From a phage: a DNA stretch of 64,000 nucleotides. The stretch lies in assembly GCA_009015555.1 (NCBI GenBank), contig GCA_009015555.1_3613.1; one strand, 5' to 3'. Positions within the stretch are counted from its first letter, which is position 1, and each line of letters opens with the position of its first letter. A program made the translations under genes and the position numbers. Positions 1 through 23,559 of this stretch are shown piece after piece. The notes under the pieces were generated by a model. It was not told the DNA's origin and made no database searches. It saw only the letters and a list, made by a program, of their open reading frames with translations.

Positions 1-888
1 TTACGGACGCCGCCCTGAGAGGTCCACCCAAGAGACTCTTGGTACATGCGGACAATCGGCACGGTGCCTGCGTGTTTAACCTCACCACCACGAATGGCAG
101 AATCCTGACCACGAATCATGCCGAAGTTCAGGCCGATCCCGGCTCGTTGAGCCGCATATTTACCCTGCGCCGTGTTGGCGTTAAAGATCTGGTCGATATT
201 ATCACCAGACTCAATCAGTACGCAAGAGCTAAACTGACGGGTCGGGGTACGAACACCCGCCATGATCGGGGTCGGTAAAGACACCTTCATCAGCGATACG
301 TTCTCGTACAGGTCAACAATACGTTCCAGACGGGTCTTTTTGTCTTCCTGTGACAACAGGCCCATTGCAATCAGCATCAGCGCCATCTGAGGGGATTCAT
401 AAATCTCCCCGGTGACGCGGTGCTTGACCAGGTACTTGTCTTCGTACTGACGCATTGCTGCGTAAGTGTAATCGAAGTCGCGGTCGTGAACGATCTTGTC
501 ATTCAGGAAAGCAATCTCATCACGGGTGTAATCGTCCAGCAGGTGGCGGTCGTACTTGCCGTTGCCCACGTTCAGATAAATCTGATGGAACAGATCGAAC
601 GGCTGGAAATCACCATATGCCTCTTTGCGGATCTTGAACAGCAGCAGTCGTGCAGCAGCGTACTGGTAATCCGGATTCTGAACACTAATCAGGTCGGATG
701 CCGCCTTAATCAGGGTTTCGTGGATGGCCTTTGTTGTTACTCCATCGAACATTTGAATCTGGGCTTTCATAAGGATCTCTGATGCACACACATCGAGACC
801 TTCACATGCCCACTCTACCACACGGTTAGCCTTCTCGGCATCGAACTTCTCTGTCGCGCCGGAATTTTTTACAACATTAATGCTGGTC
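1..888 (-). CDS. nrdA: Ribonucleotide reductase class Ia large subunit NrdA, N-terminal ~295 aa; gene runs off the window start
   Basis: Minus-strand translation LTSINVVKNSGATEKFDAEKANRVVEW...VSLPTPIMAGVRTPTRQFSSCVLIE... is collinear with E. coli NrdA N-terminus/ATP-cone from memory; TTG start at 886-888 preceded by AAGGAG; absent from ORF track because truncated. Confidence 0.88.
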
Positions 889-908
889 AAGCGGATCTCC
901 TTATTGAA

Positions 909-1139
909 TTACTTAGCTTCAGGCTTTTTGACTTCGTACTGCTCAACATCTTCCTCGGAAGCCGCACCGAGGCGGATTGTTTTACCGGAGTACGGGTCGT
1001 GGTACGTATCGTCGTAACCCATCGACTCATCACACAGGTCGTTGAACTGCAACCAGCCAATGTACTCGGCTTTGCTTTGGAAGCCACGTTTGAACCACTT
1101 AGTCTGCTCGTCCGGAACAGCATTGTTTTTCTTTGCCAT
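909..1139 (-). CDS. hypothetical protein (76 aa)
   Basis: ORF directly upstream of nrdA on same strand; no recognisable motif. Confidence 0.4.
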   Translation of the reverse strand: MAKKNNAVPDEQTKWFKRGFQSKAEYIGWLQFNDLCDESMGYDDTYHDPYSGKTIRLGAASEEDVEQYEVKKPEAK

Positions 1140-1141
1140 GA

Positions 1142-1636
1142 TTACGCTCCTTTCACCAGGTTGAAGATATCATCCATGTCGTCGAACTCTGGCAGGTCCA
1201 TGACAACAACGTCGCTACGATCCTCGCGTTTGGTGTACTTGCGGGTGTTGACCTTTTCCACAGATGGGATGTCGAACGCCAGGGAGTTCACCAGTGCAGC
1301 ACCCACGGCGCTGTTTACATCGAGGACATCTACTTTATCATAAATCCCCACGAACGGGAAGTCACGTTCATCACGCAGACGACCTGAGAAAATGGTTGTC
1401 GTGCGGAACATGTAAGGCTTATCAGCACATCGGACATTTACGCCGTCCATGCGGTCAATCTTGCATGGGACGTACAGACCAGTCTCTTCATTCAGGACAG
1501 AGACCTCAAATCCGATCAGGTGCAACACTTGGCGAAGAGTTTCCTTTTTCTTCATGTCCTTTCCAAGAAACTTTGCACACTCGACAATGAAATCCAGAGT
1601 CACAGAGCCATATTTAATATTTTTACCGAAAGCCAT
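1142..1636 (-). CDS. hypothetical protein (~165 aa; start 1636 or 1657)
   Basis: Non-overlapping ORF in gene-dense minus-strand block; no motif recognised. Confidence 0.45.
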   Translation of the reverse strand: MAFGKNIKYGSVTLDFIVECAKFLGKDMKKKETLRQVLHLIGFEVSVLNEETGLYVPCKIDRMDGVNVRCADKPYMFRTTTIFSGRLRDERDFPFVGIYDKVDVLDVNSAVGAALVNSLAFDIPSVEKVNTRKYTKREDRSDVVVMDLPEFDDMDDIFNLVKGA

Positions 1637-1717
1637 TCTACATCTCCTCGTACACAAATTCCGGGGCCAATGCCCCGGTCATAACAGAATAGGGTAAGGT
1701 TACTTCTTTGTCAAACT

Positions 1718-2764
1718 TTATTTAGCAAAATTGCTCAGGTTGTACCCACCAACTGCAACATGGCCCGGGATTAGCTGGCGATGCTGGATAAATCCCTTGA
1801 AATTGCCCGACCAGAAGTTTCCTTCGCGATCGACGTGCGTGATCCCTTTCTCCCAAGAGGATGGGCACCATGCCGCATTCAGCAACTGGCTCTCTGGGTA
1901 CTCACAATCATCAACCGTCTCTTCAATTTCACGACCCTGGTGTTCGAATGGAGAGGCATGTACCTTCTTCCCGGCAACCAGACGGGTGTAGATGTCCAGA
2001 GCCTTGTCCTTGGTGCTGTCCAGACGGCGATAGCTCACCTGACCACAACAAGAGGCAGAGATGCGGAGCGCCTCTTCTTCTGTCAGCATTACCGGGCGGT
2101 CATTTTCATCCAGAACGCAATAGCCTTCGAAGATGTGTGCGTCACCCTCCGGCCCGAAACCGTACACGTGGTCAACATACGGGGTGTGCCATACGCCCGC
2201 CGGGAGCCACTCCGGCTCGGAGTTATCCATCGCCTCCTTCATGAGGTTAGCCAGAACCTCGATCGTTGGGTCTGCATCAGCATCGACACGAAGCCACAGG
2301 AAGTTTTCCATTTCCGTTGTGGTCATGACCGTCTTCATCATCTGGAACGGTTCGATCAGACGGTTAGCGATCTGCTTGTGGAATTTGGCCTCTTCAAAAG
2401 CCAGTGCCACTTCGCAGGCGCGATCAGCCGCCTCGGCCCATGCGTCGCGCCCAGTCATTCCCTGCTCGTACTGCGGCAGGTAAACCAACGCATCATGCTC
2501 AACACCCTTGTCCTGCATACCCGGCTGGTTGGAGCCGAAGCGGACTGGCATTGCCATGTTTTCACGAATCAGCTTCACCATCGTCTTGATCGGTACAGCG
2601 CGAGATGACATCGCGTTACGGCTGAACAGTCGGTGAGTCATGAACTCACTGTGGATGATGCGAGGGTAAGTCAATTCAAAAGTCGTGATACGACCACTGC
2701 GCTGCCCCACAGAATCGGCGATGATCTGAACTTCGATATTGCCACGACTAAATACCTGACCCAT
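1718..2764 (-). CDS. thyX: Flavin-dependent thymidylate synthase ThyX
   Basis: ThyX signature RHR-x7-S present as FMTHRLFSRNAMSSRA; AAGGAG RBS before ATG at 2764. Confidence 0.85.
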   Translation of the reverse strand: MGQVFSRGNIEVQIIADSVGQRSGRITTFELTYPRIIHSEFMTHRLFSRNAMSSRAVPIKTMVKLIRENMAMPVRFGSNQPGMQDKGVEHDALVYLPQYEQGMTGRDAWAEAADRACEVALAFEEAKFHKQIANRLIEPFQMMKTVMTTTEMENFLWLRVDADADPTIEVLANLMKEAMDNSEPEWLPAGVWHTPYVDHVYGFGPEGDAHIFEGYCVLDENDRPVMLTEEEALRISASCCGQVSYRRLDSTKDKALDIYTRLVAGKKVHASPFEHQGREIEETVDDCEYPESQLLNAAWCPSSWEKGITHVDREGNFWSGNFKGFIQHRQLIPGHVAVGGYNLSNFAK

Positions 2765-2778
2765 AAAATCTCCTTTTA

Positions 2779-2982
2779 TTACTTCAACTTACGAATTTTG
2801 TAAGGAACAACAACATCATGCCTGACGGCAAGATACAAGTCAAGCATCTCCTTGCACATATCCTGCGTCACCCTGAAAGAAGTGAGCAGGTCTCCCTGCT
2901 CCGTTCTTACCTCAATATGCTCCCCGTATCGGACAACATATCGACCTTTTCCGCAACGCATTACAGGTTTTCCAGCAACCAA
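2779..2982 (-). CDS. hypothetical protein (67 aa)
   Basis: Small ORF between thyX and nucleotidase gene. Confidence 0.3.
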   Translation of the reverse strand: MVAGKPVMRCGKGRYVVRYGEHIEVRTEQGDLLTSFRVTQDMCKEMLDLYLAVRHDVVVPYKIRKLK

Positions 2983-3572
2983 TCAGCGATTTCTTTCCAG
3001 TCCGCTGAAGTTAAGTCGTAATTGATGCGTGGCTCAACATCCTGACTGAAAGGCGTGTCGAACTTGATCTTAATCACGTCGTCCGGGAATTGATTCAGGA
3101 ACTGGTTCCGATCGTCAATGATTACCCCTCCAGCGACGCCCGCTTTAACCTTTGTGGCATAAAAACCGCTGCCGTCTGTCCCGTTGTCGAGATCAAGGAA
3201 CGGACAATGACGCTTCAGGAATCGTACCTTGCTGCTGAAGTGCCCCTTCTTGCAGTAAGATACGAAACGAATCGGGTGCCCGGCCTCGTGCAAACGACGA
3301 ATTGCATCCACTGCCCCGGCAATCGGCGTCATCTTGTCGTACAGATGAGGATCTTCCCAAAACTCATACGGCTCAATCGCCTCTTTGCAACGAGTCGGGA
3401 AGTATTTGGAGAGGTTGTAATTGAACAACCCCTTTTCCTCATAATCCTTGTCCATCAAATCAACGTCCGCAGGGATTTGATAGACACTTTCCATCCAGTA
3501 AAGCCAAGGCCACCCTGAATCAACGAACGTCAGATCTACATCTACCAGGATCGGGGTCTTAGTGAATGACAT
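2961..3572 (-). CDS. HAD-family 5'(3')-deoxyribonucleotidase-like protein
   Basis: N-terminal VDVDLTF (DxDxT HAD motif I) when started at MSFTKTPILVDVDL; AAGGGAG RBS before ATG at 3572. Confidence 0.65.
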   Translation of the reverse strand: MSFTKTPILVDVDLTFVDSGWPWLYWMESVYQIPADVDLMDKDYEEKGLFNYNLSKYFPTRCKEAIEPYEFWEDPHLYDKMTPIAGAVDAIRRLHEAGHPIRFVSYCKKGHFSSKVRFLKRHCPFLDLDNGTDGSGFYATKVKAGVAGGVIIDDRNQFLNQFPDDVIKIKFDTPFSQDVEPRINYDLTSADWKEIADWLLENL

Positions 3573-4218
3573 ACAGGTCGCTCCCTTTACAGTCTTGCAC
3601 AAAATCACAAATCTTACGGACCGTGCCGTTCAGATCGCCTTCTTCGTTCAGGATGTCAGTTTCATACATCCGAAGATGTTCAGGAAACTCTTTCGCATAG
3701 ATATATCGGCGAGAATCCCCATCGAAATTGTACTCCGTGCCATCTTTTTTCAGACGGTGGATTCGGACAAGGAAATAGTTGTCCGGGCCAACCACATTCA
3801 CAACCGGGATCGACTCCTCTAAGAAGCCCCCGTCGCTGACCACAACTACCAGTTGCACGTCTGCCGGGGTTTCATCCTTCAGCTTTTGCAACTTGGCGGC
3901 AAATGCCTTACCAAACACATCATTCCCAAATGTGGGCTTCATGATGTTCTCGGAGCAGTGGATCATCCAGTCACGAGGGCTGACGTTTACGCCGTTGATC
4001 TGGAGATACGGGCACGGCTTCTCTTTGTACTCACGCTCATACAGAGCGAACCACAGCTTACGGCTCAGGCCGGATGCCCGGATAGCGATATCGAACAGAA
4101 GTTCCTTGAACTCCATGTGGACGACTTCAAACCCCGGGGTGTTGATATAGCTGTGGAGACCTTCGCACAGTGCATCTTTTCCCGCGCCCGCCGGGGCATT
4201 CAAATTAATCAGAATCAT
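3559..4218 (-). CDS. Deoxynucleoside monophosphate kinase (P-loop)
   Basis: MILINLNAPAGAGKD Walker A at N-terminus; start overlaps upstream stop as TAATG (translational coupling). Confidence 0.72.
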   Translation of the reverse strand: MILINLNAPAGAGKDALCEGLHSYINTPGFEVVHMEFKELLFDIAIRASGLSRKLWFALYEREYKEKPCPYLQINGVNVSPRDWMIHCSENIMKPTFGNDVFGKAFAAKLQKLKDETPADVQLVVVVSDGGFLEESIPVVNVVGPDNYFLVRIHRLKKDGTEYNFDGDSRRYIYAKEFPEHLRMYETDILNEEGDLNGTVRKICDFVQDCKGSDLYVIH

Positions 4219-4529
4219 TAGTGCTCCCACTCCTCTCTGTACCATTTTGGCATAGGTGCCAAATAACCATTCACACGCTCAAGTTCGTTAAGGATCTTCT
4301 CTGCCGAACTTAATTTTGTAAAGCGGCGGAGGGTCTTCCACCCCTTGTAATGAACCGGGAGTTCAAAACACTCATAAGAGCCTTCGCAATACCTGAACTC
4401 TTGAACCCGATACTTAAAGAAATAAGCTCTCGGGTCGTACTGGATTCGATATTTGAACTGATCGCCATTATCCCGATGCGCCTGCTTTTTGTCAAGGGCC
4501 TTTTTCATTTCTTGGGAGATGAACATCAT
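4218..4529 (-). CDS. hypothetical protein (103 aa)
   Basis: ORF with coupled stop/start to downstream kinase gene. Confidence 0.5.
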   Translation of the reverse strand: MMFISQEMKKALDKKQAHRDNGDQFKYRIQYDPRAYFFKYRVQEFRYCEGSYECFELPVHYKGWKTLRRFTKLSSAEKILNELERVNGYLAPMPKWYREEWEH

Positions 4530-4546
4530 TATCCTCCTGTTTCAAA

Positions 4547-4572
4547 AAGAAAAACCGCCCCGAAGGGCGGCT
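4547..4572 (-). terminator. Rho-independent terminator hairpin (CCGCCC-TTCG-GGGCGG family) with T-run on minus strand
   Basis: Minus-strand reading ccaagccgcccttcggggcggtttttcttttt directly after stop of 4577..5659 gene. Confidence 0.6.
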
Positions 4573-4576
4573 TGGG

Positions 4577-5659
4577 TTACAGAATGTTCGCCAGCGTTTT
4601 CTTCATCGCTGCCTTCTCACGAACGTTCTGGCGGTCACGGGCACAAGACCCGCATTCCTGACAACGGTACACCTTAAATTTGGACAGGAAGGTGTGGGCA
4701 GATTTGCCTTTTTCTTCCACCAAGTCGTCGGAACCGCAGCGTACACATCGCATCACAGACTGATCCGGGTGGAACAGGGCAATGTTAGGGTGCTTACGCA
4801 TAAACGGACGAACGGTCAGGTACAGTTCTTCCAATGTCGGGATATCCCCGATGTTGTACTCTTCCATTTCGTCGAATGCCGTAGGATCACCTTCCACACA
4901 GCGACGCCACAGACCGAATCCTTCGTGAGACAACTTACGGCTGTCCAGTTCGAAGTAGTTACACGCCGCTTCCAGTGCATTGGAAGGCAGAGAGAACGAC
5001 TCCTTCAGTGCCGCCAGTGTGTCGATCGTGATATATGGGCTTGGCGGTTGCATACCGTAATATGCGAAACGCTGGTTGGCCCAACCACGGTCGAAACGGG
5101 CGTTGTGTGCAATGAAGATATCACACTCGTCAAGGACTTGCCAGAGATCCTGAATCAGTTTTTTATCCGACTGATGATCCCGTTTGAACTCTTCCGGGTA
5201 GTCGGTCAGTTTACGACTGAAGATGGACGGGTTGTGCAGCCACTTCCCGGCGAACGTCAGCATGTACGGCTCTTGAATAACCTGCTTCGGCGCGATGAAT
5301 TGCTTGAAGCGACCAAACGAATAGGCGATGCTCGGAGAGGTCTCGACATCACCAAGGAACACTTTGGCACCCGGGTTATTTTCCTTCACCTTTTCGATGA
5401 AGGTTTTCTGGATCTCTGCCAGCGTTTTACCACCATTGACTTCCTGCTGCATAAAATCAGCGTACTCATCTGGTGTTGGGATACTGTCAATCAATTGTTG
5501 GACAGTTTCCAGATTACGTGCTTCCAGTTCACGCTTCAGCATGTTGCGTACAGTTGACTCTTGAGATTCCTTGCCCAGTTGACGGGCTACCTCGCGCTGG
5601 GACAACCCACCCTTCATCAGAGCCATAACCTGTTCAACAGTAAAAGTCACATTAGCCAA
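4577..5659 (-). CDS. DEDDy-type 3'-5' exonuclease with N-terminal HTH-like region and C-terminal Cys4 ribbon
   Basis: Exo I DVET, Exo II HNARFD, Exo III YNIGD motifs in order; C-terminal CVRCG...CQECG. Confidence 0.68.
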   Translation of the reverse strand: MANVTFTVEQVMALMKGGLSQREVARQLGKESQESTVRNMLKRELEARNLETVQQLIDSIPTPDEYADFMQQEVNGGKTLAEIQKTFIEKVKENNPGAKVFLGDVETSPSIAYSFGRFKQFIAPKQVIQEPYMLTFAGKWLHNPSIFSRKLTDYPEEFKRDHQSDKKLIQDLWQVLDECDIFIAHNARFDRGWANQRFAYYGMQPPSPYITIDTLAALKESFSLPSNALEAACNYFELDSRKLSHEGFGLWRRCVEGDPTAFDEMEEYNIGDIPTLEELYLTVRPFMRKHPNIALFHPDQSVMRCVRCGSDDLVEEKGKSAHTFLSKFKVYRCQECGSCARDRQNVREKAAMKKTLANIL

Positions 5660-5673
5660 AATTAATCTCCCGA

Positions 5674-5937
5674 TTACTTACAAAATTCGATAATGTCTAC
5701 CACGGCGAAGTCACGAACATCGTCTTTATCGACATCGTGCGCCTTGATGAACCACTGAGCGCCTTTATGGTACTCACTTTCCCCGTACCAGAACATTGGG
5801 GCACCCTTGATGGTTCGATAACCGCATTCACCTCTCCAGTTACGGTAGAAGAACCGAATGTTCGGGGCATCCAACCCCGCATACAGACTTCGATCGATCT
5901 TACTCATAAAGATAGTCTTCCTCCAATTTCCGGACAA
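5674..5937 (-). CDS. hypothetical protein (87 aa)
   Basis: ORF only. Confidence 0.4.
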   Translation of the reverse strand: MSGNWRKTIFMSKIDRSLYAGLDAPNIRFFYRNWRGECGYRTIKGAPMFWYGESEYHKGAQWFIKAHDVDKDDVRDFAVVDIIEFCK

Positions 5938-6469
5938 ACTCAGTGACGTAGATGGTGATCATCACGCCCTTGTCCAGGTTCTCGTCAATAACGATACCGA
6001 AGTTCAGGTAGGCGTTACGGGCGATAGTTTCCTTTGTCCACCTCTTGAGTGACTTCTTCAAGTCGGCGACAATCTCTCCGTGGAACTTATGGTGGAGATA
6101 GTCCCTTTCAAGATAGTCTGCCAGTCTACGCAGAGTTTCACTCATTGTCAACCCTGTTTTCCCTTCCATGTGCTTAGACCACAACTTCTGGACTCCGCCC
6201 TCGAAAAGATTAAGAGTTGACCCGATGACCCCACGGCATTTTCCGTCGTAATGGTCATGGTCCAAACATGGGTCCGCCATCGGCTCCCGCAGGATAGCAC
6301 AAAGACCACCCTGCTCCAAAAGGAGTTGATCCCGGTAGGCCGCAATACTCTTCGACCCAGAGACCCACTTATCCTTGCTCAAAGGTACACGAATCGGCGT
6401 TGTAGCCTTCACTTTAGCAGTGAAGCTGGGCTTCCTCGATCGCCTTCTTCTCCCTGTCCGTATTGCCAC
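5900..6469 (-). CDS. Recombination endonuclease VII-like (HNH-type) protein; start uncertain
   Basis: CAIL...DHDH...CRGV...N motif arrangement resembles T4 endonuclease VII zinc/catalytic core from memory. Confidence 0.62.
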   Translation of the reverse strand: MAIRTGRRRRSRKPSFTAKVKATTPIRVPLSKDKWVSGSKSIAAYRDQLLLEQGGLCAILREPMADPCLDHDHYDGKCRGVIGSTLNLFEGGVQKLWSKHMEGKTGLTMSETLRRLADYLERDYLHHKFHGEIVADLKKSLKRWTKETIARNAYLNFGIVIDENLDKGVMITIYVTEFVRKLEEDYLYE

Positions 6470-7058
6470 TAATACCCTCCATCGTCAGAGCGAAAAGGAA
6501 CTCCTCCCGGGTCGGGTTTTTGAAGTCCTCAAAATATCCCAGCATGGTCCGGCGGAACAGCGTAACAGGAAAGTCAAACTTATCCGACAGTGATCCGACA
6601 TTTGTACCGACGCCTGTACTGGTCAGGGCAATATCTGAACCCAGCCCGTTCCTGATCCTCTCATCGTTTTGCGTTAAGAGGAACATAGCCATGCCCGGTA
6701 TGTAATCTGATCTTTTGCAACGAGACATCACCTCTGCCAAGTTTTCAGGATACTCCATCCTCTCAAACCCCCGCCCGGTGACGAGGACCTCATCATAGAT
6801 GAGGCCCCTTGTCTTCTCTGCCCAAGACCATTGATTAGTGCAGTAAAAGTTGATCAGGAAATCAACATTCAGCACCTTGTCACGAACAATGATCTCGTCG
6901 AAGTGTTTCCTGTCTACAGACTCGTATGTTTTATCGCGGGAAAGAGTCCCCTGCAAAGAAAACCTCCAGTCCTGCTTATCACTCCGGTCGTAACACAGGA
7001 TAATCTTACGTGTTGCGTTCTTTAAGATTGAATCCCAGTCTTTCTCCGTTTCTCTCAA
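6414..7058 (-). CDS. hypothetical protein (214 aa)
   Basis: Long ORF in operon context; no motif recognised. Confidence 0.45.
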   Translation of the reverse strand: MRETEKDWDSILKNATRKIILCYDRSDKQDWRFSLQGTLSRDKTYESVDRKHFDEIIVRDKVLNVDFLINFYCTNQWSWAEKTRGLIYDEVLVTGRGFERMEYPENLAEVMSRCKRSDYIPGMAMFLLTQNDERIRNGLGSDIALTSTGVGTNVGSLSDKFDFPVTLFRRTMLGYFEDFKNPTREEFLFALTMEGISGNTDREKKAIEEAQLHC

Positions 7059-7635
7059 GGAAACACCCTCCGATCAGGATGGCGTCGGCGAGGTCGGTAG
7101 CCCCGCCATTCTTTCCAGACTTATTATAGCCCTTCAGGAATCCCGGATGCAGGATCTCGCAAACACGCATCATTTCGTTTTTGCCCATCTTCACCTTGAC
7201 CATCTTCGTCCCGGCATCGTTCATGGTTTCCTGTTCTTCACCCGGTAACCACTTACGTGCCCAAGACTTAACCGATGTCGGCGCGATGACGTGAATTTGG
7301 TCCATAGTATACCCGTCACGAAGAAGAGTCAACTGGATGCTGTAAAATAATCCAGCCAGGTCCCTTGTGGCATCGCCAACCGACCCCAGGCTCAACGATT
7401 CAAGCACGATGTGATCCACATCGAACGAATCACACACCCCGGCAATCTGCCCGGTGATGTAGGCAATCTGTTCAGCAGTGTGCTCGAAGTACATGCACCA
7501 ACCTTTGGAGTCCTTGGCCTTCTTCTCTGACCCCGTGGTGTGGAGTACCTCCTTAAAGATCGGAATCCCGTCTTCCAACACCACATAGGCACATGAAGAC
7601 AAACTTTGGTCAATCGTCAATAAGCGCATCTTCAT
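7006..7635 (-). CDS. RuvC-like Holliday junction resolvase
   Basis: N-terminal MRLLTIDQSLSS...YVVLEDG and C-terminal DLADAILIG resemble RuvC catalytic Asp motifs. Confidence 0.58.
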   Translation of the reverse strand: MKMRLLTIDQSLSSCAYVVLEDGIPIFKEVLHTTGSEKKAKDSKGWCMYFEHTAEQIAYITGQIAGVCDSFDVDHIVLESLSLGSVGDATRDLAGLFYSIQLTLLRDGYTMDQIHVIAPTSVKSWARKWLPGEEQETMNDAGTKMVKVKMGKNEMMRVCEILHPGFLKGYNKSGKNGGATDLADAILIGGCFLERNGERLGFNLKERNT

Positions 7636-7945
7636 CCTTAGCAATAAAATGGTACTCGTTCATCAAAAACACATAGTTCTTGATGACCTTTTGAACTTCG
7701 TCGTACACCGTGAACATGGCGTACTTGTCCCCCGGGTAAGGAACACCCACCGGGTATACTTCGCACAGACTACGCACCCGTGGGTCGTACCACTGGATTC
7801 GCCAAGGTTCTTCCAGCATGGTCCACGGCTCCTCGATGAGATAGAAGGTCTTTGAAGCCCCGGGCACGAATGCCGCCCGGAGTTCATCTGCCTTAATCAT
7901 CTCCTCGACGCGAACATCCAAACCGCCAGCGTCGTTTTGACTCAT
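7610..7945 (-). CDS. hypothetical protein (111 aa)
   Basis: ORF only. Confidence 0.45.
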   Translation of the reverse strand: MSQNDAGGLDVRVEEMIKADELRAAFVPGASKTFYLIEEPWTMLEEPWRIQWYDPRVRSLCEVYPVGVPYPGDKYAMFTVYDEVQKVIKNYVFLMNEYHFIAKDEDALIDD

Positions 7946-9057
7946 TACACAACCCCCACTTTACGAAGAACATGTCCCAGAGTGGTCTTATCATCCGGGG
8001 TGCGCTTCATGTACACCGCTTGGAAGATAACAGAGGCCCACTGCCCGGCGCTGAACTTGCGATCCACGCCCATGTGATCAGTGAATGCCACCCCGTCAGG
8101 GAACCACTCCTTGTACTGATTTACGATCGCTTCCCACATGGCCTTCTCATCCTGACACGGAGAGATGACTTGGAAGGCAGAGGTCTCGCCAAACTTGATC
8201 TTGTCGAAGTTTTGGTATGGCTTCACGTTATCCGATTGATCACCGAACAACATTTGGTAACCAAAGAACTTCTGGCCCCAGCCTTTTACCTTACCCTTCT
8301 CCATCCAGATCTCCCCCATCGACTCATCAATAAGCCACGGGAGCGGATGCTTCCAGTCGCGCTCTGTTGAGTCACGCATGGTATTGAAGATAAGGCCAGG
8401 GCACTGGACTTGATCTTTGTCGAATGATGCCACGATATAGTTGAACTTGCCAGTCTTTTTGTAATGCAACCAGCCCTCATACTGTTTCATGGTCAGATAA
8501 TCATCCGCCTCGATCCCGTCAATCACGATCGCGCCGTATTTCCGTTGAACATATTCACGGGTATCCGACAGCAACAACGGGCGAACAGTGTCCTCACGGT
8601 TGCCTTTGTAGATTTCCGGCGTCGGCAGCGCCAACCGGAAGTTTCCGGTCCCACCCAAGACACCGAGTCCATTTGTCGTACCCATGTGTTCAAGGATCGC
8701 GTTGATCTTAATCTTCAGCAAGTGCAGGCAGTTTTCCACAGGTTCAGGGTACTGCTTGTCCGTAATTGTGAAATCATCACGGGTCCAAGGAGTAAACTCC
8801 CGGCCCGCTGCCGCCATCTTCGCCTCCATGTTGGTGTTCTGGTCCTTCAGCCACCCGCCGACTACTGTTTTCTGTCGGCCCCAAAACTCCGTCTTGTTCT
8901 TGAACTCCATCTGACGACCGGATTTGTTGTGGGTTGCGATAATGGTACGCTTTTCCGCGCCCGCCGCCGCAACATAACACGTCTGATCCAAATCAAGAAC
9001 AATAGTAACATCATCCGTAACGATATCCTTCAGGTTTTCTACAACGGGATAACCCAT
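7945..9057 (-). CDS. Flap endonuclease / 5'-3' exonuclease (RNase H-like, FEN family)
   Basis: GIEADDYL, FDKDQVQCPG and MLFGDQSDN motifs typical of phage 5'-3' exonucleases. Confidence 0.72.
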   Translation of the reverse strand: MGYPVVENLKDIVTDDVTIVLDLDQTCYVAAAGAEKRTIIATHNKSGRQMEFKNKTEFWGRQKTVVGGWLKDQNTNMEAKMAAAGREFTPWTRDDFTITDKQYPEPVENCLHLLKIKINAILEHMGTTNGLGVLGGTGNFRLALPTPEIYKGNREDTVRPLLLSDTREYVQRKYGAIVIDGIEADDYLTMKQYEGWLHYKKTGKFNYIVASFDKDQVQCPGLIFNTMRDSTERDWKHPLPWLIDESMGEIWMEKGKVKGWGQKFFGYQMLFGDQSDNVKPYQNFDKIKFGETSAFQVISPCQDEKAMWEAIVNQYKEWFPDGVAFTDHMGVDRKFSAGQWASVIFQAVYMKRTPDDKTTLGHVLRKVGVV

Positions 9058-9069
9058 TACTCACTCCTC

Positions 9070-9576
9070 TTAAAACGCATCACCAAAGTCCTCTTCTTCC
9101 TTGACGGGGCGCTTGAACTTAAAGTCCGGCCCCATGTACTCACTCAGGTAGTCGATATTAAGCGACCACTCCTGCTGGCTGCGCTGCCGCCATGTGGCAA
9201 ACTCACTTTTCAGATAAGCAATGGCCTGATCACGAGTGATCCCATTAACCTTCATGAATTGCTTGATCGCCCTTTCGAGTTTCCCGTTCTTCTCGGCGAG
9301 GCCCGGATGGTGGAACTCATGGCACGGCGGACACAGGCTCATGAGGCCGACCAGTTTAACCTCTCCATTTTCGAATGTCCAGCTTTCATGACACTCAACC
9401 GGATGTTTTCTTCCGTTTCCACCCTGCCCACCACAGATCTGGCAGGTGTAGTTGTGCTCGGCATAGCACTTCCGGCGCACCTTATCCCACCCGGTCTGGG
9501 TGAGGTAAGAACGGAGGTTGTTGTCCCACGCCGTTTGTGGGATCAGGCAGATTTTATGCTTAATCTTTGAAGTCAT
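9070..9576 (-). CDS. Cys/His-rich putative zinc-binding protein
   Basis: CQICGG...HPVECHE...CPPCHEFHH cluster; start taken at MTSKIKHK. Confidence 0.42.
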   Translation of the reverse strand: MTSKIKHKICLIPQTAWDNNLRSYLTQTGWDKVRRKCYAEHNYTCQICGGQGGNGRKHPVECHESWTFENGEVKLVGLMSLCPPCHEFHHPGLAEKNGKLERAIKQFMKVNGITRDQAIAYLKSEFATWRQRSQQEWSLNIDYLSEYMGPDFKFKRPVKEEEDFGDAF

Positions 9577-10111
9577 TACGCACCCTCTCATACCCGCCGC
9601 AGCGGTCAATCAGGGCGTCCGTCGCCCGGTCCCACGCCTTGCCCAAGAGGTTCATCCCCAACCAGTTGGCCTCGTCGTCAATCATCGGGTGGTCTTGGCT
9701 CAGGCCGACACCCCAGATACGATCCCGGTCAGAAGCCTCAACAAAACTCCGGCCCGCAAGTCGGTGCTGGATCGCCTCGCAGCGGAGGCCGAGGTCAAAC
9801 ACCAGACGGCAGTAACAGACATTCTCGACGATCTGCTCTCGGGACTTCTCCCACAGTTCGTTGTTGAACCCCTTTACCTTACGACCAAGCATCTTGGCTT
9901 CCTGCGGGTGGAATACCTCTGTGATCTGCCGGGCGATATTGTGATCGGCAAACAGCATGGCCTTTTCGTACATCATCATGTGCTCCCCGGTGTAGAACTT
10001 AACACCTTCCTGCTCATGTCGCGGCAGAGCGAAAGCCCTGTCGTTTCGGTAATGATTACTGAACATGTCCTTCCACGAATAGAAGAACACGTGCTTGTCG
10101 GTCACCCTCAT
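9560..10111 (-). CDS. NADAR (YbiA-like, DUF1768) domain protein
   Basis: GEHMMMYEKAMLF...IWGVGL pattern characteristic of NADAR/YbiA family from memory. Confidence 0.65.
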   Translation of the reverse strand: MRVTDKHVFFYSWKDMFSNHYRNDRAFALPRHEQEGVKFYTGEHMMMYEKAMLFADHNIARQITEVFHPQEAKMLGRKVKGFNNELWEKSREQIVENVCYCRLVFDLGLRCEAIQHRLAGRSFVEASDRDRIWGVGLSQDHPMIDDEANWLGMNLLGKAWDRATDALIDRCGGYERVRNDFKD

Positions 10112-10320
10112 ACGCAGAACTCCCCTGCCAGTCGGTTGTACTTTTCCCGGAAGAACTCAAGGCGGACCTCCAGGTCGTCGATATGGTCCGCAGCCTGAAT
10201 CATCTGGTCATACGGATCTCCGTCGCAGTTCTCCTGACTCGCAAGGTCCCGCAGGACCGTCTGAATCGGGAACATGCCGTTTTTAATTGGATGGATCACT
10301 TTCATCGGCGGCTTCCCCAC
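10108..10320 (-). CDS. hypothetical protein (70 aa)
   Basis: ORF, tandem with neighbours. Confidence 0.4.
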   Translation of the reverse strand: MGKPPMKVIHPIKNGMFPIQTVLRDLASQENCDGDPYDQMIQAADHIDDLEVRLEFFREKYNRLAGEFCV

Positions 10321-10517
10321 TCGGTGGAGATCAGGAAGGCCATAGCCACGGCAAATACCAACTCAACCATCAATGTGACATTGATCACTGTCTCCAGTTC
10401 ACGACCGTAAATACCGTTCAGGTTGAAAGTCGTTAACCCCACAATCGCCGGGGTGGCGAAAAGGATCAGTACGCCGATAACAACATAGCCGATCAAGAAT
10501 TTAACCAAACTGTTCAT
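10302..10517 (-). CDS. small membrane protein
   Basis: Hydrophobic stretch LIGYVVIGVLILFATPAIVGL; start trimmed to MNSLVKF to remove overlap. Confidence 0.4.
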   Translation of the reverse strand: MNSLVKFLIGYVVIGVLILFATPAIVGLTTFNLNGIYGRELETVINVTLMVELVFAVAMAFLISTEWGSRR

Positions 10518-10852
10518 AGTCCATCTCCAAAAATCAGGGACGCCGGGCAACTGATCCGGCAGTCTTTTGCTAACGGGAAGTCCTGCAACCACTGCGCCAG
10601 TAGGATGCTCGAACTGTTTTTGTAATCACCGGAGTTGATGTGGATGTATCCGATCTCCCAAGGGAACAGAGGGCTGTTCACGATGTGAGTCTCCACAATG
10701 TCCGTCAACTGACCATAAGTGATCAAGTTCTCTGCCTTCGATGGCAGGTACAAGCCGAAGCGAAGACCCGCCGGGCCAGTCGGTTCCATCTTACGGAACC
10801 CTACCGCCTTGGACATGTCTACCGCAAACACCTCAATAGTTACAGTTTCCAT
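10514..10852 (-). CDS. hypothetical protein (112 aa)
   Basis: ORF only. Confidence 0.45.
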   Translation of the reverse strand: METVTIEVFAVDMSKAVGFRKMEPTGPAGLRFGLYLPSKAENLITYGQLTDIVETHIVNSPLFPWEIGYIHINSGDYKNSSSILLAQWLQDFPLAKDCRISCPASLIFGDGL

Positions 10853-11229
10853 CAGTAAAGATCCTCGCTAAACAGTGTATCGTATGGCGCACCTTTTTTA
10901 CGCACCGTGTTGATCTGTCCTGCGTGAGTGGCAATGACCAGGGCATCTTGTCGGTTGTGATACTCTCCCCATTGGTCGATAAAACCCTGCTCTTCACCCG
11001 CTACAAAACGAGTAGAAATTTTATCTTCCAAGAGGTCAAGAACCTCAGCCATATCTTTGGAATAGTGACGAGACCCCGGAACTACCACAAAACCACCAGT
11101 CTTCAGTTCGAAGCGGTTGGCGGCACAAACAATCCGTCGCTGCAATTTGCGACCGTCCCACCAGTCGGCGATCTTATAACAAATTTCCGGGAGACCTTCT
11201 TTTACGGTATCTTCCATCAGTTCCTCCAA
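10852..11229 (-). CDS. hypothetical protein (125 aa)
   Basis: ORF only. Confidence 0.45.
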   Translation of the reverse strand: MEELMEDTVKEGLPEICYKIADWWDGRKLQRRIVCAANRFELKTGGFVVVPGSRHYSKDMAEVLDLLEDKISTRFVAGEEQGFIDQWGEYHNRQDALVIATHAGQINTVRKKGAPYDTLFSEDLY

Positions 11230-11429
11230 TATACGTTTTTGTCTTTTTTAATCATGCGGCTTACCTCTTTTGCCGACAAACGGTCATAACTTGCTCCGTT
11301 TTCCCGGTATGCGCCGCATGGGACCCATTCAGGGATAGAAAAGCTATAGTGCTGGTAGAAGATAGTACCTTTGGCAATTTCAATCTCCAGCCAAGGGAGA
11401 TGAACCTCGCGGATTTTGAAATATGTCAT
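11217..11429 (-). CDS. hypothetical protein (70 aa)
   Basis: ORF only. Confidence 0.38.
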   Translation of the reverse strand: MTYFKIREVHLPWLEIEIAKGTIFYQHYSFSIPEWVPCGAYRENGASYDRLSAKEVSRMIKKDKNVYWRN

Positions 11430-11599
11430 TGTCTGTTCACCAGGCTCGTCAGGATCGCAGAACCGATATATTCCAGCACATCATTGGTCGTGCTCATCTC
11501 CGGCAGTTTGATTGCCTTGCTTTCTTTATCTATTCCTGCCTGAACAGAGGGGTTTTTGAGAAGGGCCGCGATCTGCTCTTTGTTGAACTTTACTAACAT
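11426..11599 (-). CDS. hypothetical protein (~57 aa)
   Basis: ORF, start trimmed to MLVKFNKEQ. Confidence 0.33.
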   Translation of the reverse strand: MLVKFNKEQIAALLKNPSVQAGIDKESKAIKLPEMSTTNDVLEYIGSAILTSLVNRQ

Positions 11600-11609
11600 G
11601 ATGGTCTCC

Positions 11610-11819
11610 TTAGTGCTTAACGTATTTTGAAGGGCAAGAACCGCCACCTTCGTGAGTTATCGCCACGGTGGTGCGCCCGTTGCTATAAATGCACACCTTG
11701 TCACTACCGTCGGTGTAGTAATCCTCCAGGTCCAGCGTTTGAGCCGCATGTGCCGCAGAGAAATTTAACACACCTGTAATCAAAACTCCCAGCATAAACC
11801 CTAAGAATACTTCTTTCAT
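11610..11819 (-). CDS. small protein with signal-peptide-like N-terminus
   Basis: MKEVFLGFMLGVLITGVLNFSAAHA hydrophobic leader. Confidence 0.4.
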   Translation of the reverse strand: MKEVFLGFMLGVLITGVLNFSAAHAAQTLDLEDYYTDGSDKVCIYSNGRTTVAITHEGGGSCPSKYVKH

Positions 11820-12022
11820 TTCGTCACCCCTTTTGCGATATTTTCGATTCGTTGGCGAAGGATCTCTTCGCCCGGTATTGGCCCGGCCTTAATAAATTCA
11901 CGGGCCTCTGGAAATTCAGTCTCCGGAAGTGCATTCAGGATCTGTTTCAGAAAACACAAAGCCTGCATACGGTGCCCATCGAACTGAAGCGCAAGGTCTC
12001 GCCATTTCATTTCTGTACTCAC
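11816..12022 (-). CDS. hypothetical protein (68 aa)
   Basis: ORF only. Confidence 0.4.
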   Translation of the reverse strand: MSTEMKWRDLALQFDGHRMQALCFLKQILNALPETEFPEAREFIKAGPIPGEEILRQRIENIAKGVTK

Positions 12023-12522
12023 TTTGCCCCCATCGCTTTCGATATGTCGTCCAAATACTGAGTCTGTGTCTTGTCATCGTCCGGCAGGCGGAGGATGTCG
12101 GCACCCCAGCGGTTGGCGTTCATCATGATGTGCAGCGGACCGCGCCGCCATTCGCCGTACCATGCACTAAGTTTGTCGTGCTCTTTGTGCATACTGTCCA
12201 ACTGGTCAATAAGATAATACGCATGATTCAGGAACTTTGCAACCAATTTCACAATATTTTCGTACTTCGGTGGAAACGGGTTGTACTCGAACATCTTATC
12301 CAGAATAACCATCTCGCGGACCATCTCACGAACGGTGCCGATCGGGTTGGCTACCGGGGCGTTCTCCCAGTTGAAGCGGTAAAGAGACTCACAGATTTCC
12401 TTGCAGCGCTTCTCCTTCTTCTCTTGGCTCTTTGGAGCTTGGAAGAAGATCTCTGCTGGAGGGTAGATGGATACGTTGTTGATCCACTTTTCAATGAAGG
12501 CCAGGTTGATACTGTTGCTCAT
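12019..12522 (-). CDS. hypothetical protein (167 aa)
   Basis: ORF only. Confidence 0.5.
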   Translation of the reverse strand: MSNSINLAFIEKWINNVSIYPPAEIFFQAPKSQEKKEKRCKEICESLYRFNWENAPVANPIGTVREMVREMVILDKMFEYNPFPPKYENIVKLVAKFLNHAYYLIDQLDSMHKEHDKLSAWYGEWRRGPLHIMMNANRWGADILRLPDDDKTQTQYLDDISKAMGAK

Positions 12523-12593
12523 GATATTTCCTCTTTCGTTGTTTGATGGGAGTAGTATACAGGAGGGGAGGCAGGAGTCAAGAGGCAGATAAA

Positions 12594-12620
12594 GAAAAAC
12601 CGCCCCGAAGGGCGGTTCTT
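12594..12620 (-). terminator. Rho-independent terminator (hairpin CCGCCCCGAAGGGCGG plus T-run)
   Basis: Hairpin immediately after stop of 12621..12902 gene; same hairpin family as at 4547 and 22007. Confidence 0.55.
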
Positions 12621-12902
12621 TTAGTATTGATCTTCAGCGTAGCGGCGCTGATTTTCTGTGTTATCCACGTCCTTTAGCGTAAAGTTGTACTGCTCGCTAC
12701 GGACTGGGGCCGGGCGCGGTGTCGGGTCCAGATGGGCCAGCTTGACACCCGGCGGAATTTCATTGATGGTGAACGTGGTGTTGACCAGTTGTCCAGCCAG
12801 TTCATCCATACGCATGGAAACGAAGGCGGCTACGGAACGACCTTCACGGTCAGCCAGGAAACGCAGTTTTTCGAAGGTTGCATCGTTGAAGTTAATGTTC
12901 AT
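12621..12902 (-). CDS. hypothetical protein (93 aa)
   Basis: ORF only. Confidence 0.45.
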   Translation of the reverse strand: MNINFNDATFEKLRFLADREGRSVAAFVSMRMDELAGQLVNTTFTINEIPPGVKLAHLDPTPRPAPVRSEQYNFTLKDVDNTENQRRYAEDQY

Positions 12903-12974
12903 ATTGTAAATCTCCTTTCTGAATTATGTTTGGGTTAACCGCCCCCGTAGGGGCGGGGTACTGCACAGCGGGTA

Positions 12975-13292
12975 TTACTCGCCGTCTTCTTCAGAAGCGC
13001 GGCCCATCAGGATGTCCAGTTCGTTAAGCTGCTCAATCTGGCCTTCCAGCGCCGCACGTTTCTTCTCAGCGGCGTCCTGCTTGTCGTACTCGCCGTTGAT
13101 CAGGGTTCGCAGGAATTTCGGATCGATGTTCAGATCTTCTTTGGTGATCGCCAGGATGCTTTTCAGGTCTTCTGCGGCGTCCTTCTGCTTACGAATCGCA
13201 TCAACACCTTCCTGAACGATATTTGCAAGGCGCTTACGTACAGCCGGGTCAGAAGGCAGGGTGTTCAGCAGTTCAACTTTTACTTTAGCCAT
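12975..13292 (-). CDS. hypothetical coiled-coil protein (105 aa)
   Basis: Charged, heptad-like sequence. Confidence 0.45.
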   Translation of the reverse strand: MAKVKVELLNTLPSDPAVRKRLANIVQEGVDAIRKQKDAAEDLKSILAITKEDLNIDPKFLRTLINGEYDKQDAAEKKRAALEGQIEQLNELDILMGRASEEDGE

Positions 13293-13542
13293 TTGTGTTA
13301 CTCCTCTTCAGTGAATGTGTGAGCATTATGCTCGTTTTAACTCAGTGTGTCAACAACTTTTTGAAACTATCGGACGAACATTCGACCTTGTTCAAAATAT
13401 CCATTCTTAATGCCCCGAGGGGCAGAAAGAGACTGTACCGCAGTAGCACCACAATTGCAAGTGGCAGTTTTGCGGTCTGCAATCTTTCGATTCTTGTCAA
13501 ATACTGCCCCGCACCCGGGGCATTTGTAAGAATACGTCGGCA

Positions 13543-13905
13543 TTACTTGTCTGTCTCCAGGATCTTACGCTCAGTAGCCAGATCACGGTTCTCCGCCAGG
13601 TCGTTTTCGAACTTACTCGGGTAACGAGCCTTCAGCTTGCGAATCACACGGTCCTGCTCTGCATCGAAGTCGGTGTTCAGTGCATCCATCGCCAGTGCCA
13701 GATACCACAGCAGGTCACCCATTTCCTCTTTCAGGTTGGTGGTGTCCAGAGGCTTGCCGTAGAACAGGGACTTCTTCAGGGCATCCTGGAACTCTGCCGC
13801 CTCGGTCACCAGACCCATTGAAGCGTGAATCAGGCGCGGGCCAACCGCGTCCAGATAAAAGTTGTGGGACTCGGTACGGATAGCATCTTTAATAAACTGC
13901 GACAT
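13543..13905 (-). CDS. MazG-like nucleotide pyrophosphohydrolase
   Basis: EMGDLLWYLALAMDAL motif typical of MazG/all-alpha NTP-PPase family; start taken at MSQFIKD. Confidence 0.6.
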   Translation of the reverse strand: MSQFIKDAIRTESHNFYLDAVGPRLIHASMGLVTEAAEFQDALKKSLFYGKPLDTTNLKEEMGDLLWYLALAMDALNTDFDAEQDRVIRKLKARYPSKFENDLAENRDLATERKILETDK

Positions 13906-13959
13906 CAACTTCTCCTTTTCTGTTTCAGTGGGGCCATTATACATGACCCCGTTACACTG

Positions 13960-14400
13960 TCAACGACTTTTGTAAATCTTTTCTGCTTCTTCCCGGCGAC
14001 GTTCGTCACGGGCCTTCCTTTCGATGGCACACGCTTCCCGGTAGGCTTTCCGCCGGGCACCGCAGATACCTTCGACCAGACGCAGAACGCGATCCTGCTC
14101 CCAACGGTTCATCCAGTCGAGATCCCCGGAGACAACAGGGGAGCCGTGGAAGTTGTCACGGTAAAGGTACGTCTTCACCTTCCGTTCGTGGTCGAGGATC
14201 ACATAGTCCACAAAGTGGCTACAGCGGTCTCGGTCCGCTTGCGATGGGTTGTCGTACACTTCCAGCTTTTTGGCAGCGATCAATTCGAGAATCCGATTGA
14301 CCGGGGGCCGGGTCATGCGCCTTGGTGTCACGTACTTATCCCATGCCCATACGAGGACCAGAAGAATAAACAAACTTGTGCAGACCCAGAATCCCGTCAT
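13960..14400 (-). CDS. membrane-anchored hypothetical protein
   Basis: N-terminal TM helix WVCTSLFILLVLVWAW. Confidence 0.45.
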   Translation of the reverse strand: MTGFWVCTSLFILLVLVWAWDKYVTPRRMTRPPVNRILELIAAKKLEVYDNPSQADRDRCSHFVDYVILDHERKVKTYLYRDNFHGSPVVSGDLDWMNRWEQDRVLRLVEGICGARRKAYREACAIERKARDERRREEAEKIYKSR

Positions 14401-15764
14401 TCCAGATCCTCCGCAATAGCCCGCAGCAGATCCAGCAGGGAGTCAGATGCCTCGATCACCTCTTCCAGGCTGTTAGCCTTGGTCTTGTCCATACGGATCT
14501 CGACGAACTTGTAGTTCAGACGAGGCAGGAACAGAGACTGAAGCTCTTTGGTTTCCGACTTCGTGATGTCGTTGGCCTTGATCGTGATGATCTGCCCGAT
14601 GAAGAAGTCCGCTGGCTTCTTACGAAGCGCGTCCGTCAAGCCGGAGCCGACGCCAACTTCCAGCAAGCCGTCACGAGTACGACAGATCAGTGCGCCGACG
14701 AGACTAGGATCTTTCTTGTGCGGCGTTGTAGCCACGACTTCCAGATCAACATCGAACTCGTTCTTCAACTTGACGCCTTTCTTCGTCTTGTTGTCGCCCC
14801 ACGGCATCTTCGCCTCTTTGAGGACGGTGCCCTCTTTCTTCTGGAGGCGCATTTCGATGAAGTGGTCGATCGCTTCCTTCAGGCTGTTGATCTTACGGCC
14901 CGTAACCATACGGAAGTTGTAACGGCGATCGACTTCCTGCACCAGCAGATCCGCCTCGATACGACGATCAGCGTAGTCGGTCTTCGACTTACGTGCGATG
15001 TACTCTTCCATCGTCACGATGTCCCAGATCACCAGGCGCACCAGATCACGATCGATGTCTGCCGGGTCTTGGTTCAGGTAGCCGTTGCCCTCAGCACGTT
15101 CCATCACACCATGCAGGCCATCATCGTCGATAACCAGACCTTCGCCATGTGCCACAAAGGCCCCACGGTTTTCTGCCGCCTGCATCAGGCGCTGCTCGAT
15201 CTCTTCCGGAGCACGGAAGTTCAGTTCCTTCCCGGAGCGGGAGCGGTAGATCACCTGCTCAGGCCACACCATGATGTCCGCATACAGGCCATCCATTTTC
15301 TCGTCGGAGAAAGCGCCCTTGTAGTTGAACTTACGCAGCAGATCCTCTTTGAACAGGGTGTAGCTCTGGTACGGAGGCTCCGTGATCAGGTCTTTCCACA
15401 CCTTATTGGTCAGAGTGGTCTGGATGCCGCACTCCAGATCTCGGTTGATGATCTTCAGAAGTGTGCCCGGCTCCTCGCAGGTCTGTACCAGTTGAGTCAT
15501 GTACGACTTCGCATCATCACCCGTGTAAACTCGCCCTGCGATGTTCTTCACCAACAGATCCACGCTTTCAGACAGCGGGGTAAGACCAGTCGTGAAGAAT
15601 GGAACCCGCAGTCCTCGGACGAAAAAGTTCAGTTCTTTGGAATATGCAACAGCGAAGGCTTGTTTCAGGCCATCGTTATCGGCATTCGCCCGCAGGATCG
15701 CTTCCTTCTCCTTGAGGGATCGGGTTGCAGACAACTCTGCGAGAATACTCGTTACGTTTGACAT
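14397..15764 (-). CDS. ATP-dependent DNA ligase-like nucleotidyltransferase
   Basis: KMDG (KxDG motif I) about 157 aa from N-terminus, similar spacing to T4 DNA ligase from memory; RNA ligase not excluded. Confidence 0.55.
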   Translation of the reverse strand: MSNVTSILAELSATRSLKEKEAILRANADNDGLKQAFAVAYSKELNFFVRGLRVPFFTTGLTPLSESVDLLVKNIAGRVYTGDDAKSYMTQLVQTCEEPGTLLKIINRDLECGIQTTLTNKVWKDLITEPPYQSYTLFKEDLLRKFNYKGAFSDEKMDGLYADIMVWPEQVIYRSRSGKELNFRAPEEIEQRLMQAAENRGAFVAHGEGLVIDDDGLHGVMERAEGNGYLNQDPADIDRDLVRLVIWDIVTMEEYIARKSKTDYADRRIEADLLVQEVDRRYNFRMVTGRKINSLKEAIDHFIEMRLQKKEGTVLKEAKMPWGDNKTKKGVKLKNEFDVDLEVVATTPHKKDPSLVGALICRTRDGLLEVGVGSGLTDALRKKPADFFIGQIITIKANDITKSETKELQSLFLPRLNYKFVEIRMDKTKANSLEEVIEASDSLLDLLRAIAEDLE

Positions 15765-15850
15765 TTGGTCTCCTCATTAACGCCACAATTGTAAGCCCGG
15801 CGAGCATTGCCCCACCGAGAATTAAGAATACCGCAAGAAATCGGATCGCG

Positions 15851-18508: not shown

Positions 18509-18550
18509 ACTATCTGACTGAATCTTGATAAAATGGGGGCGGAGGAACTC

Positions 18551-19201: not shown

Positions 19202-19203
19202 CA

Positions 19204-19234: not shown

Positions 19235-19269
19235 TAAGATCGCTTTACTTTAACTGAGAGGAGAGAGAT

Positions 19270-23553: not shown

Positions 23554-23559
23554 GATCAT

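Follow-up and report, generated by a model that had tools for sequence, protein, structure and literature searches.

A putative TTG start codon for nrdA and dense gene overlaps in a nucleotide-metabolism block of a CR3-like phage

Where does translation of nrdA begin, and how closely is its expression tied to that of its neighbours, in a block of co-oriented and partly overlapping phage genes? The question is raised by a stretch of phage DNA of 64,000 nucleotides (nt), here called the window (GenBank assembly GCA_009015555.1, contig GCA_009015555.1_3613.1), which at its left edge carries the 5' part of nrdA, the gene for the class Ia ribonucleotide reductase alpha subunit. The original prediction had nrdA start at a TTG codon, saw neighbouring genes joined by overlapping stop and start codons, and took this to imply polycistronic, stoichiometrically coupled expression. 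The explanation preferred here, which is considered highly probable as a whole, combines a TTG start of nrdA and tight gene overlaps with polycistronic transcription that is punctuated by internal signals. Positions 1-5000 of the window share 97.7% nt identity with Cronobacter phage CR3, and 560-1160 are identical (100%). Judged by its sequence, the window is that of a CR3-like Certrevirus phage (Vequintavirinae), and the segment appears to be a piece of a nucleotide-metabolism and replication module. The first 17.8 kb or so carry genes on the minus strand only; each feature discussed below was therefore read as the reverse complement unless a plus strand is indicated. Functions were assigned by Pfam, by PHROGs and by the annotations of relatives.

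The nrdA start region reads TAA TTC AAT AAG GAG ATC CGC TTG ACC AGC. The Shine–Dalgarno (SD) sequence AAGGAG (897..902) is separated by the 6-nt spacer ATCCGC from a TTG codon at 888..890. Both elements had been predicted, but at a position for the codon (886-888) that is 2 nt off. The TTG follows an in-frame TAA (911..909) by 18 nt; this TAA is also the stop codon of an upstream 76-amino-acid (aa) gene. Between this stop and the ATP-cone domain the frame holds no ATG, GTG or TTG other than the TTG itself; the next candidates are codon 24 (GTG) and codon 41 (ATG), both of them within the ATP-cone. The visible gene (1..890) comprises codons 1-296 and runs off the window start, the catalytic part lying outside. 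The complete ATP-cone Pfam profile (1-88 of 88) matches aa 4-90 of the TTG-initiated protein, followed by Ribonuc_red_lgN at aa 140-217 and the start of Ribonuc_red_lgC at aa 221-296, all above curated cut-offs. ATP-cone, all-alpha domain and ten-stranded barrel domain thus appear in the order expected of a class Ia alpha subunit. Residues 5-298 of Escherichia coli NrdA align with residues 4-296 of the window's protein (E = 1e-94 to E. coli R1). The T4-type nrdA of phage slur03 (MQLINVIKSSG...) is annotated from an ATG that lines up with residue 1 of (M)TSINVVKNSG.... Within codons 2-23 most substitutions are at third positions (first/second/third: 0/0/7 in phiTE, 6/5/15 in SSBI34), and codons 24-96 behave alike.

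The TTG and the preceding AAGGAG are kept in all relatives, namely CR3, P7_Pc, KaOmega, POP15, CR9, phiTE, SSBI34, LTH01, A7_1 and the IMG/VR sequences L011-L013. This set includes phages as distant as SSBI34 (71% nt identity) and LTH01 and A7_1 (68%). The spacer between the two signals varies among relatives (ATCCGC, ATTCGC, ATCCAC, TTATAC, ATCAAT, AAATAAA), as does the second codon. A separate lineage, L014 and L015, with 49% amino-acid identity, also has TTG; distant phage NrdA genes, at 54% amino-acid identity or less, use ATG. Scans of IMG/VR with the A7_1 and SSBI34 NrdA proteins found no further close lineages. The SD spacing, the lack of an alternative start that would spare the ATP-cone, the conserved position and the coding-type substitutions together mark TTG 888..890 as the predicted UUG initiation codon of nrdA.

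How a UUG would serve as the start can be proposed from the context. Folding of the RNA from 846-985 gave z = 0.04 and left the nrdA SD unpaired, with no sequestering structure or riboswitch-like element in that interval. A strong, unstructured AAGGAG 6 nt upstream would drive initiation at the UUG. Initiation is probably mostly de novo instead of by termination and reinitiation, because 18 nt separate the codon from the stop of the 76-aa gene upstream. The UUG itself probably sets a moderate initiation rate. Two further ideas were considered and rejected. TTGACC at the nrdA start does not look like a promoter -35 element: it has no acceptable -10 partner and becomes TTGAGC in SSBI34 and TTGGGT in A7_1. 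A tRNA-Met (CAT) gene at 25429-25503 was considered as an initiator that might favour UUG; it does not look like one, since by inspection it has a U1-A72 pair and its anticodon stem lacks the three G-C pairs.

Start codons elsewhere in the block are less constant. TTG opens 6 of the window's 84 genes and GTG 5, by heuristic gene calls; E. coli uses 3% UUG and 14% GUG (bioRxiv 10.1101/063800). While the nrdA TTG stays constant, start codons vary between ATG, GTG and TTG in four further genes of the block. The gene for a DNA polymerase exonuclease subunit (4577..5659; phrog_403, aa 5-359 matching profile 4-320) starts with a TTG at 5659..5657; its position is confirmed by SSBI34 and A7_1, which have ATG and GTG, respectively, at the aligned codon. 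A 60-aa gene starts with ATG, GTG or TTG across relatives, and a RuvC-like gene and the 76-aa gene start with ATG or GTG. The constancy of the nrdA TTG amid this turnover suggests constraint, although the deep lineages are few and the case is not compelling. A more specific proposal is that the invariant UUG in Certrevirus and related Vequintavirinae was selected as a translational throttle, perhaps sensitive to IF3, that holds the level of NrdA relative to its partner NrdB. This is offered tentatively and is on balance doubtful. If it were true, NrdA would be held at a set level against a separately transcribed, AUG-started NrdB.

The gene overlaps were read directly. TAATG at 4216..4220 combines the stop of a 103-aa gene (TAA 4220..4218) with the start of a deoxynucleoside monophosphate (dNMP) kinase gene (ATG 4218..4216), a 1-nt overlap. 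The kinase gene (3559..4218; phrog_139, E = 8e-44) in turn ends with TAA 3561..3559 inside the gene for an NT5C-type 5'(3')-deoxyribonucleotidase (2961..3572; Pfam NT5C), whose ATG is at 3572..3570, so that 14 nt are shared (3559..3572). These two junctions stand exactly as predicted. For the third, placed at 7610-7635, the overlap is real but its boundary is not. The stop is TGA 7612..7610, and the RuvC-like resolvase gene (7006..7629; phrog_159) starts at ATG 7629..7627, hence an overlap of 20 nt at 7610-7629. The SD TAAGGA stands 5 nt before this ATG, and relatives share the codon, apart from a GTG in A7_1. The ATG at 7635 reads GAC in CR9 and abuts the SD without spacing.

Overlaps are unusually dense in this block. 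The minus-strand block has 34 same-strand junctions, of which 15 are overlaps: six by 1 nt, five by 4 nt, and one each by 8, 14, 17 and 20 nt. In the plus-strand block the figure is 7 of 45 (Fisher p = 0.01). Among the 23 junctions within ±20 nt, 11 fall at exactly -1 or -4 (binomial P = 3e-9 against a flat distribution). Two gene models in this set, for small genes and for the start of an endonuclease VII gene, follow the CR3 annotation. A sharp peak at -1 and -4 is a universal prokaryotic pattern (PMC6728339, PMC10666635). The junctions concerned include TAATG at 4216-4220, 2959-2963 and 7943-7947, and five of the form ATGA between 10.1 and 11.8 kb. The junction at 2959-2963 joins the nucleotidase gene to the 60-aa gene (2779..2961; CR3 gp220-like, phrog_4903), and that at 7943-7947 joins an exonuclease gene (7945-9057) to a 111-aa gene (7610..7945; CR3 gp229-like, phrog_13101). 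The possibility that the 103-aa open reading frame (ORF) (4218..4529; CR3 gp223-like) is an over-annotation, which would void the TAATG at 4216, was rejected on three grounds: the differences are biased to third positions (27/20/52), an indel keeps the frame, and phrog_15820 is matched at full length.

Tight junctions are kept while their sequence changes. The exonuclease/111-aa junction is TAATG in the window and in all seven aligned lineages. At the nucleotidase/60-aa junction TAATG is found in the window and in Certrevirus, GTGA in SSBI34 and TTGA in A7_1, and at the 103-aa/kinase junction TAATG in the window, CR3, CR9 and KaOmega and ATGA in POP15. The kinase/nucleotidase overlap is 14 nt in the window and 11, 8, 11 or 0 nt in relatives. 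Two genes downstream of 1-nt overlaps, the 60-aa gene (start 2961) and the 111-aa gene (start 7945), have weak SDs, which fits a reliance on reinitiation. In E. coli and Haloferax volcanii, 13 of 14 tested overlapping pairs were strictly coupled (PMC6728339). By analogy, the overlapping pairs in the window are likely to be translationally coupled: terminating ribosomes would probably reinitiate on the next cistron, an effect expected to count most at weak downstream SDs, such as those of the 60-aa and 111-aa genes. The nrdA gene probably stands outside such coupling. It follows the upstream stop by 18 nt and overlaps no neighbour, and in E. coli reporters gaps of about 20 nt nearly abolish termination–reinitiation (PMC10666635). 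Because of this gap and its strong unstructured SD, nrdA probably initiates independently.

Transcription of the block would be polycistronic but punctuated. A predicted intrinsic terminator, AAGCCGCCC-TTCG-GGGCGGTTT followed by a T-run (4542..4573), separates the exonuclease subunit gene from the 103-aa gene. Its RNA form is AAGCCGCCC-UUCG-GGGCGGUUU plus U-run, with a 9-bp stem and a UUCG loop at 4573..4552 and the tail UUUCUUUUU (fold z = -3.5). A GC stem-loop, a U-run, a position at a gene end and conservation are thus all present. The structure is kept in all seven relatives, including SSBI34 and A7_1; it is annotated in phiTE, and P7_Pc annotates a terminator there on the opposite strand. 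A 20-nt module of this element, CCGCCCTTCGGGGCGGTTTT, occurs four times in the window in near-identical form (0.01 expected), at 4551-4570 (-), 12596-12615 (-), 22009-22028 (+) and 39275-39294 (+), each copy at a gene end and in the orientation of the gene. A further copy is found in CR3 (L001 10517-10538). About 15–30 nt past this copy and past the one at 12596-12615 a sigma70-type promoter is seen. The terminator at 4573..4552 would end a unit of about 8 kb.

A second punctuation mark lies closer to nrdA. The 81-nt gap between thyX, the gene for a flavin-dependent thymidylate synthase, and the 164-aa gene holds a predicted sigma70-type promoter, TTGACA-17-TATTCT (1686..1714). A GC-rich hairpin, CCGGGGC-ATTG-GCCCCGG (1661..1678), follows directly, 7 nt past the -10 element. 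The hexamers are conserved within a diverged spacer (TTGACA-18-TACTAT in SSBI34, TTGACA-17-TATTAT in LTH01 and A7_1), and the hairpin is kept in the same three phages with different, still complementary stems. Because of this conserved promoter and hairpin, nrdA probably belongs to a three-gene unit, gp218-gp217-nrdA, which the promoter and its proximal hairpin would head. A second module of this kind is present at 20135-20195 (+). In both, TTGACA-17-TAnnnT is followed after 7–12 nt by a GGGGC...GCCCC hairpin, which would place the hairpin at the 5' end of the transcript. Published descriptions of CR3, CR8, CR9 and CB7 include sigma70-like promoters (PMC7344957).

A candidate internal promoter, TTGACA-17-GATAAT (4467..4495; 11 of 12 positions matching), lies within the 103-aa gene. 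Its hexamers are kept in CR9 and POP15, and the -10 element is GAAAAT in KaOmega; coding constraint may explain the conservation. The most conserved stretch of the 103-aa gene coincides with these hexamers. The gene is present in CR3, CR9, POP15, KaOmega and P7_Pc and absent from phiTE, SSBI34 and A7_1. In phiTE and SSBI34 the terminator is followed by a sigma70-type promoter and then the kinase gene; in A7_1 the kinase gene comes directly after the terminator.

The partner with which nrdA has a defined stoichiometry is nrdB. Its arrangement was read from CR3, as it lies just outside the left edge of the window. The CR3 nrdA-nrdB interval (L001 10336-10613) contains a 171-nt ORF, a copy of the terminator and a promoter matching at 12 of 12 positions, TTGACA-16-TATAAT, and nrdB starts with ATG. 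The 171-nt ORF is unannotated in CR3 and annotated in POP15, KaOmega and P7_Pc; P7_Pc has an extra ORF of 654 nt in the same interval. The products of the overlapping genes (103-aa, dNMP kinase, nucleotidase and 60-aa) are not known subunits of one complex. UUG and GUG codons initiate at 10–100% of the efficiency of AUG (bioRxiv 10.1101/063800). By this measure the UUG would be expected to lower NrdA output relative to AUG-started neighbours, the opposite of an enforced stoichiometry.

Several points weigh against the account given so far, and they are best taken together with the alternatives they favour. One such alternative places the nrdA start downstream, at GTG codon 24 (821..819) or ATG codon 41 (770..768), and makes the TTG a leucine codon of the leader. 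RefSeq records do just this, CR3 and CR9 being annotated from GTG codon 24 (L001 8147 and L007 941) and phiTE from ATG codon 41 (L008 993), and a weak GAGAAGG motif is found about 9 nt before the GTG. Either start would, however, remove 23–40 residues of a full-length ATP-cone collinear with the E. coli and T4 proteins. Codons 2-23 evolve as coding sequence, a strong conserved SD stands at ideal spacing before the TTG, and six other records (P7_Pc, POP15, KaOmega, SSBI34, LTH01 and A7_1) annotate the TTG. The downstream starts are therefore very improbable as the main site, though minor internal initiation at codon 24 or 41 may occur, and the three records are best regarded as mis-annotations that cut into the ATP-cone. 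The invariance of the TTG, for its part, rests on Certrevirus, SSBI34, the A7_1 group and L012, and could reflect inertia instead of selection. A different idea is that readthrough of the TAA at 911..909 yields a gp217-NrdA fusion: in the window the two genes share a frame, with only six sense codons between TAA and TTG. This is scarcely credible and was rejected, as the frame is not conserved (the spacer is 2 nt longer in phiTE, CR9 and L011/L013). TAA is, moreover, the most efficient stop codon, and neither a readthrough context nor an RNA structure is present at 911..909. Initiation at TTG 888..890 is thus retained for nrdA.

For the junctions, the simplest alternative is that overlaps reflect genome compaction only, each gene initiating at its own SD. 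Most downstream starts do have an SD-like motif, the kinase/nucleotidase overlap varies in length among relatives (14, 11, 8 or 0 nt), and transcripts from the candidate promoter at 4495..4467 would require the kinase gene to initiate alone. Independent initiation may accordingly contribute substantially at overlaps. The junction counts, too, come from heuristic gene calls, which were checked over 1–9 kb against the annotations of CR3 and P7_Pc. Against compaction alone stand the peak at exactly -1 and -4, the retention of overlap through codon changes (TAATG, GTGA, TTGA), the weak SDs at 2961 and 7945 and the strict coupling of comparable pairs (PMC6728339); this alternative is unlikely, if still to be taken seriously. 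The opposite extreme was the original prediction's own reading, in which the entire block is one polycistronic mRNA with stoichiometric output. Co-orientation of the genes over 1–17.8 kb with short or negative spacers speaks for it. So does the loose deoxynucleoside triphosphate (dNTP)-synthetase complex that is formed by the nucleotide-metabolism enzymes of T4. This reading is nevertheless quite improbable. The interval 886-4220 is crossed by the conserved promoter and hairpin at 1714..1661 and bounded upstream by the conserved terminator at 4573..4552. The hairpin, with its weak U-run, could be either a terminator or a 5' stabiliser. Stoichiometric output in particular finds no footing: nrdA is set off from the upstream stop by a gap of about the length that nearly abolishes coupling in E. 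coli (PMC10666635), nrdB in CR3 sits behind a terminator with its own perfect promoter, the overlapping genes are not known to form one complex, and a UUG is expected to cut NrdA output (bioRxiv 10.1101/063800).

The wider gene order can now be given. In the direction of transcription the genes are exonuclease, 111-aa, RuvC-like, further genes, DNA polymerase exonuclease subunit, 103-aa, dNMP kinase, NT5C-type deoxyribonucleotidase, 60-aa, thyX, 164-aa, 76-aa and nrdA, which continues past position 1. The 76-aa gene (909..1139; CR3 gp217-like, phrog_5488) shows a third-position substitution bias and is annotated in CR3 and P7_Pc. The 164-aa gene (1142..1636; CR3 gp218-like, phrog_5557) precedes it with a gap of 2 nt. 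These PHROG matches assign no function to either gene. The thyX gene (1718..2764; Pfam Thy1, annotated as thymidylate synthase in relatives) has 348 codons in the window, 337 in CR3, 345 in CR9 and POP15 and 340 in KaOmega; the 33-nt difference from CR3 probably explains why the BLAST match to that phage falls into two pieces. KaOmega and phiTE both conserve a 180-aa gene (6414-7005, minus strand) whose putative start is a TTG at 6956. The matching region of CR9 and POP15 is unalignable, pointing to a replaced or highly diverged gene, and the GTG start (6412) of the adjoining endonuclease VII gene is not conserved. In CR9 a gene for an HNH homing endonuclease lies between thyX and gp218 (L033 7862-8170), and in phiTE such genes split both thyX and nrdA (L036 6460-7826 and 8781-12710); the window is without such insertions where visible. 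Its tRNA cluster (23478-27024, plus strand) comprises 18 genes, the number given for CR3 in PMC7344957. An Rfam scan of 1-20000 at gathering thresholds returned zero families.

The main value of the analysis concerns annotation quality. As the ATP-cone is the allosteric activity site, the truncated RefSeq NrdA proteins would mislead modelling of phage reductase regulation. The DNA polymerase exonuclease subunit also appears to be mis-started in CR3 and CR9, 33 nt (11 codons) late; the start at 5659 in the window compares with the annotated L001 3375 in CR3. A TTG start of nrdA, coupling by overlap, and promoters and terminators in Certrevirus are all already known, and nothing here departs from known kinds. 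The additions are modest: the clade-wide invariance of the nrdA TTG, three RefSeq start corrections and a local operon map. The map is made up of terminator–promoter modules, a promoter–hairpin module and closely overlapping cistrons. It brings no new principle, and it should be useful background when Certrevirus phages, candidates for the biocontrol of Cronobacter and Pectobacterium, are engineered or their transcriptomes studied.

The reductase of E. coli (PDB 1R1R/2R1R) and the T4-type enzymes are class Ia alpha subunits with an N-terminal ATP-cone, and their N-termini are collinear with that of the window's protein within one residue. The T4-type nrdA starts with ATG, and so does that of E. 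coli; that of the window probably starts with TTG. A single operon holds nrdA and nrdB in E. coli, while here, judging from CR3, nrdB stands behind a terminator and has a promoter to itself. Known coupled pairs show the same overlap geometries (-1 as TGATG or TAATG, -4 as ATGA), the same co-direction and the same -1/-4 peak as the window (PMC6728339, PMC10666635). They differ in that several overlaps in the window are longer (8, 14, 17 and 20 nt), that nrdA is in no overlapping pair, and that the encoded proteins are not known subunits of heteromeric complexes. The signals resemble by type the sigma70-like early and middle promoters and the rho-independent terminators described for Certrevirus, CR3 included, in PMC7344957: TTGACA/TATAAT-type elements in gaps near nucleotide-metabolism genes, and a GC hairpin with a T-run. 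In phiTE and CB7, nrdA carries both an HNH intron and an intein (PMC7344957), neither of which is present in the window's visible 5' part. Intron splicing in CB7 is documented in the same paper, and the CB7 virion proteomics described there covers structural proteins only. The RefSeq records of CR3, CR9 and phiTE give a shorter NrdA, from GTG24 or ATG41, than that of the window. The closest known systems are nonetheless the Certrevirus nrdA loci themselves (CR3, P7_Pc, POP15, KaOmega, CR9 and phiTE), which share 87–100% DNA identity around the start, have the TTG and AAGGAG alike, and keep the order thyX, gp218, gp217, nrdA seen in the window.

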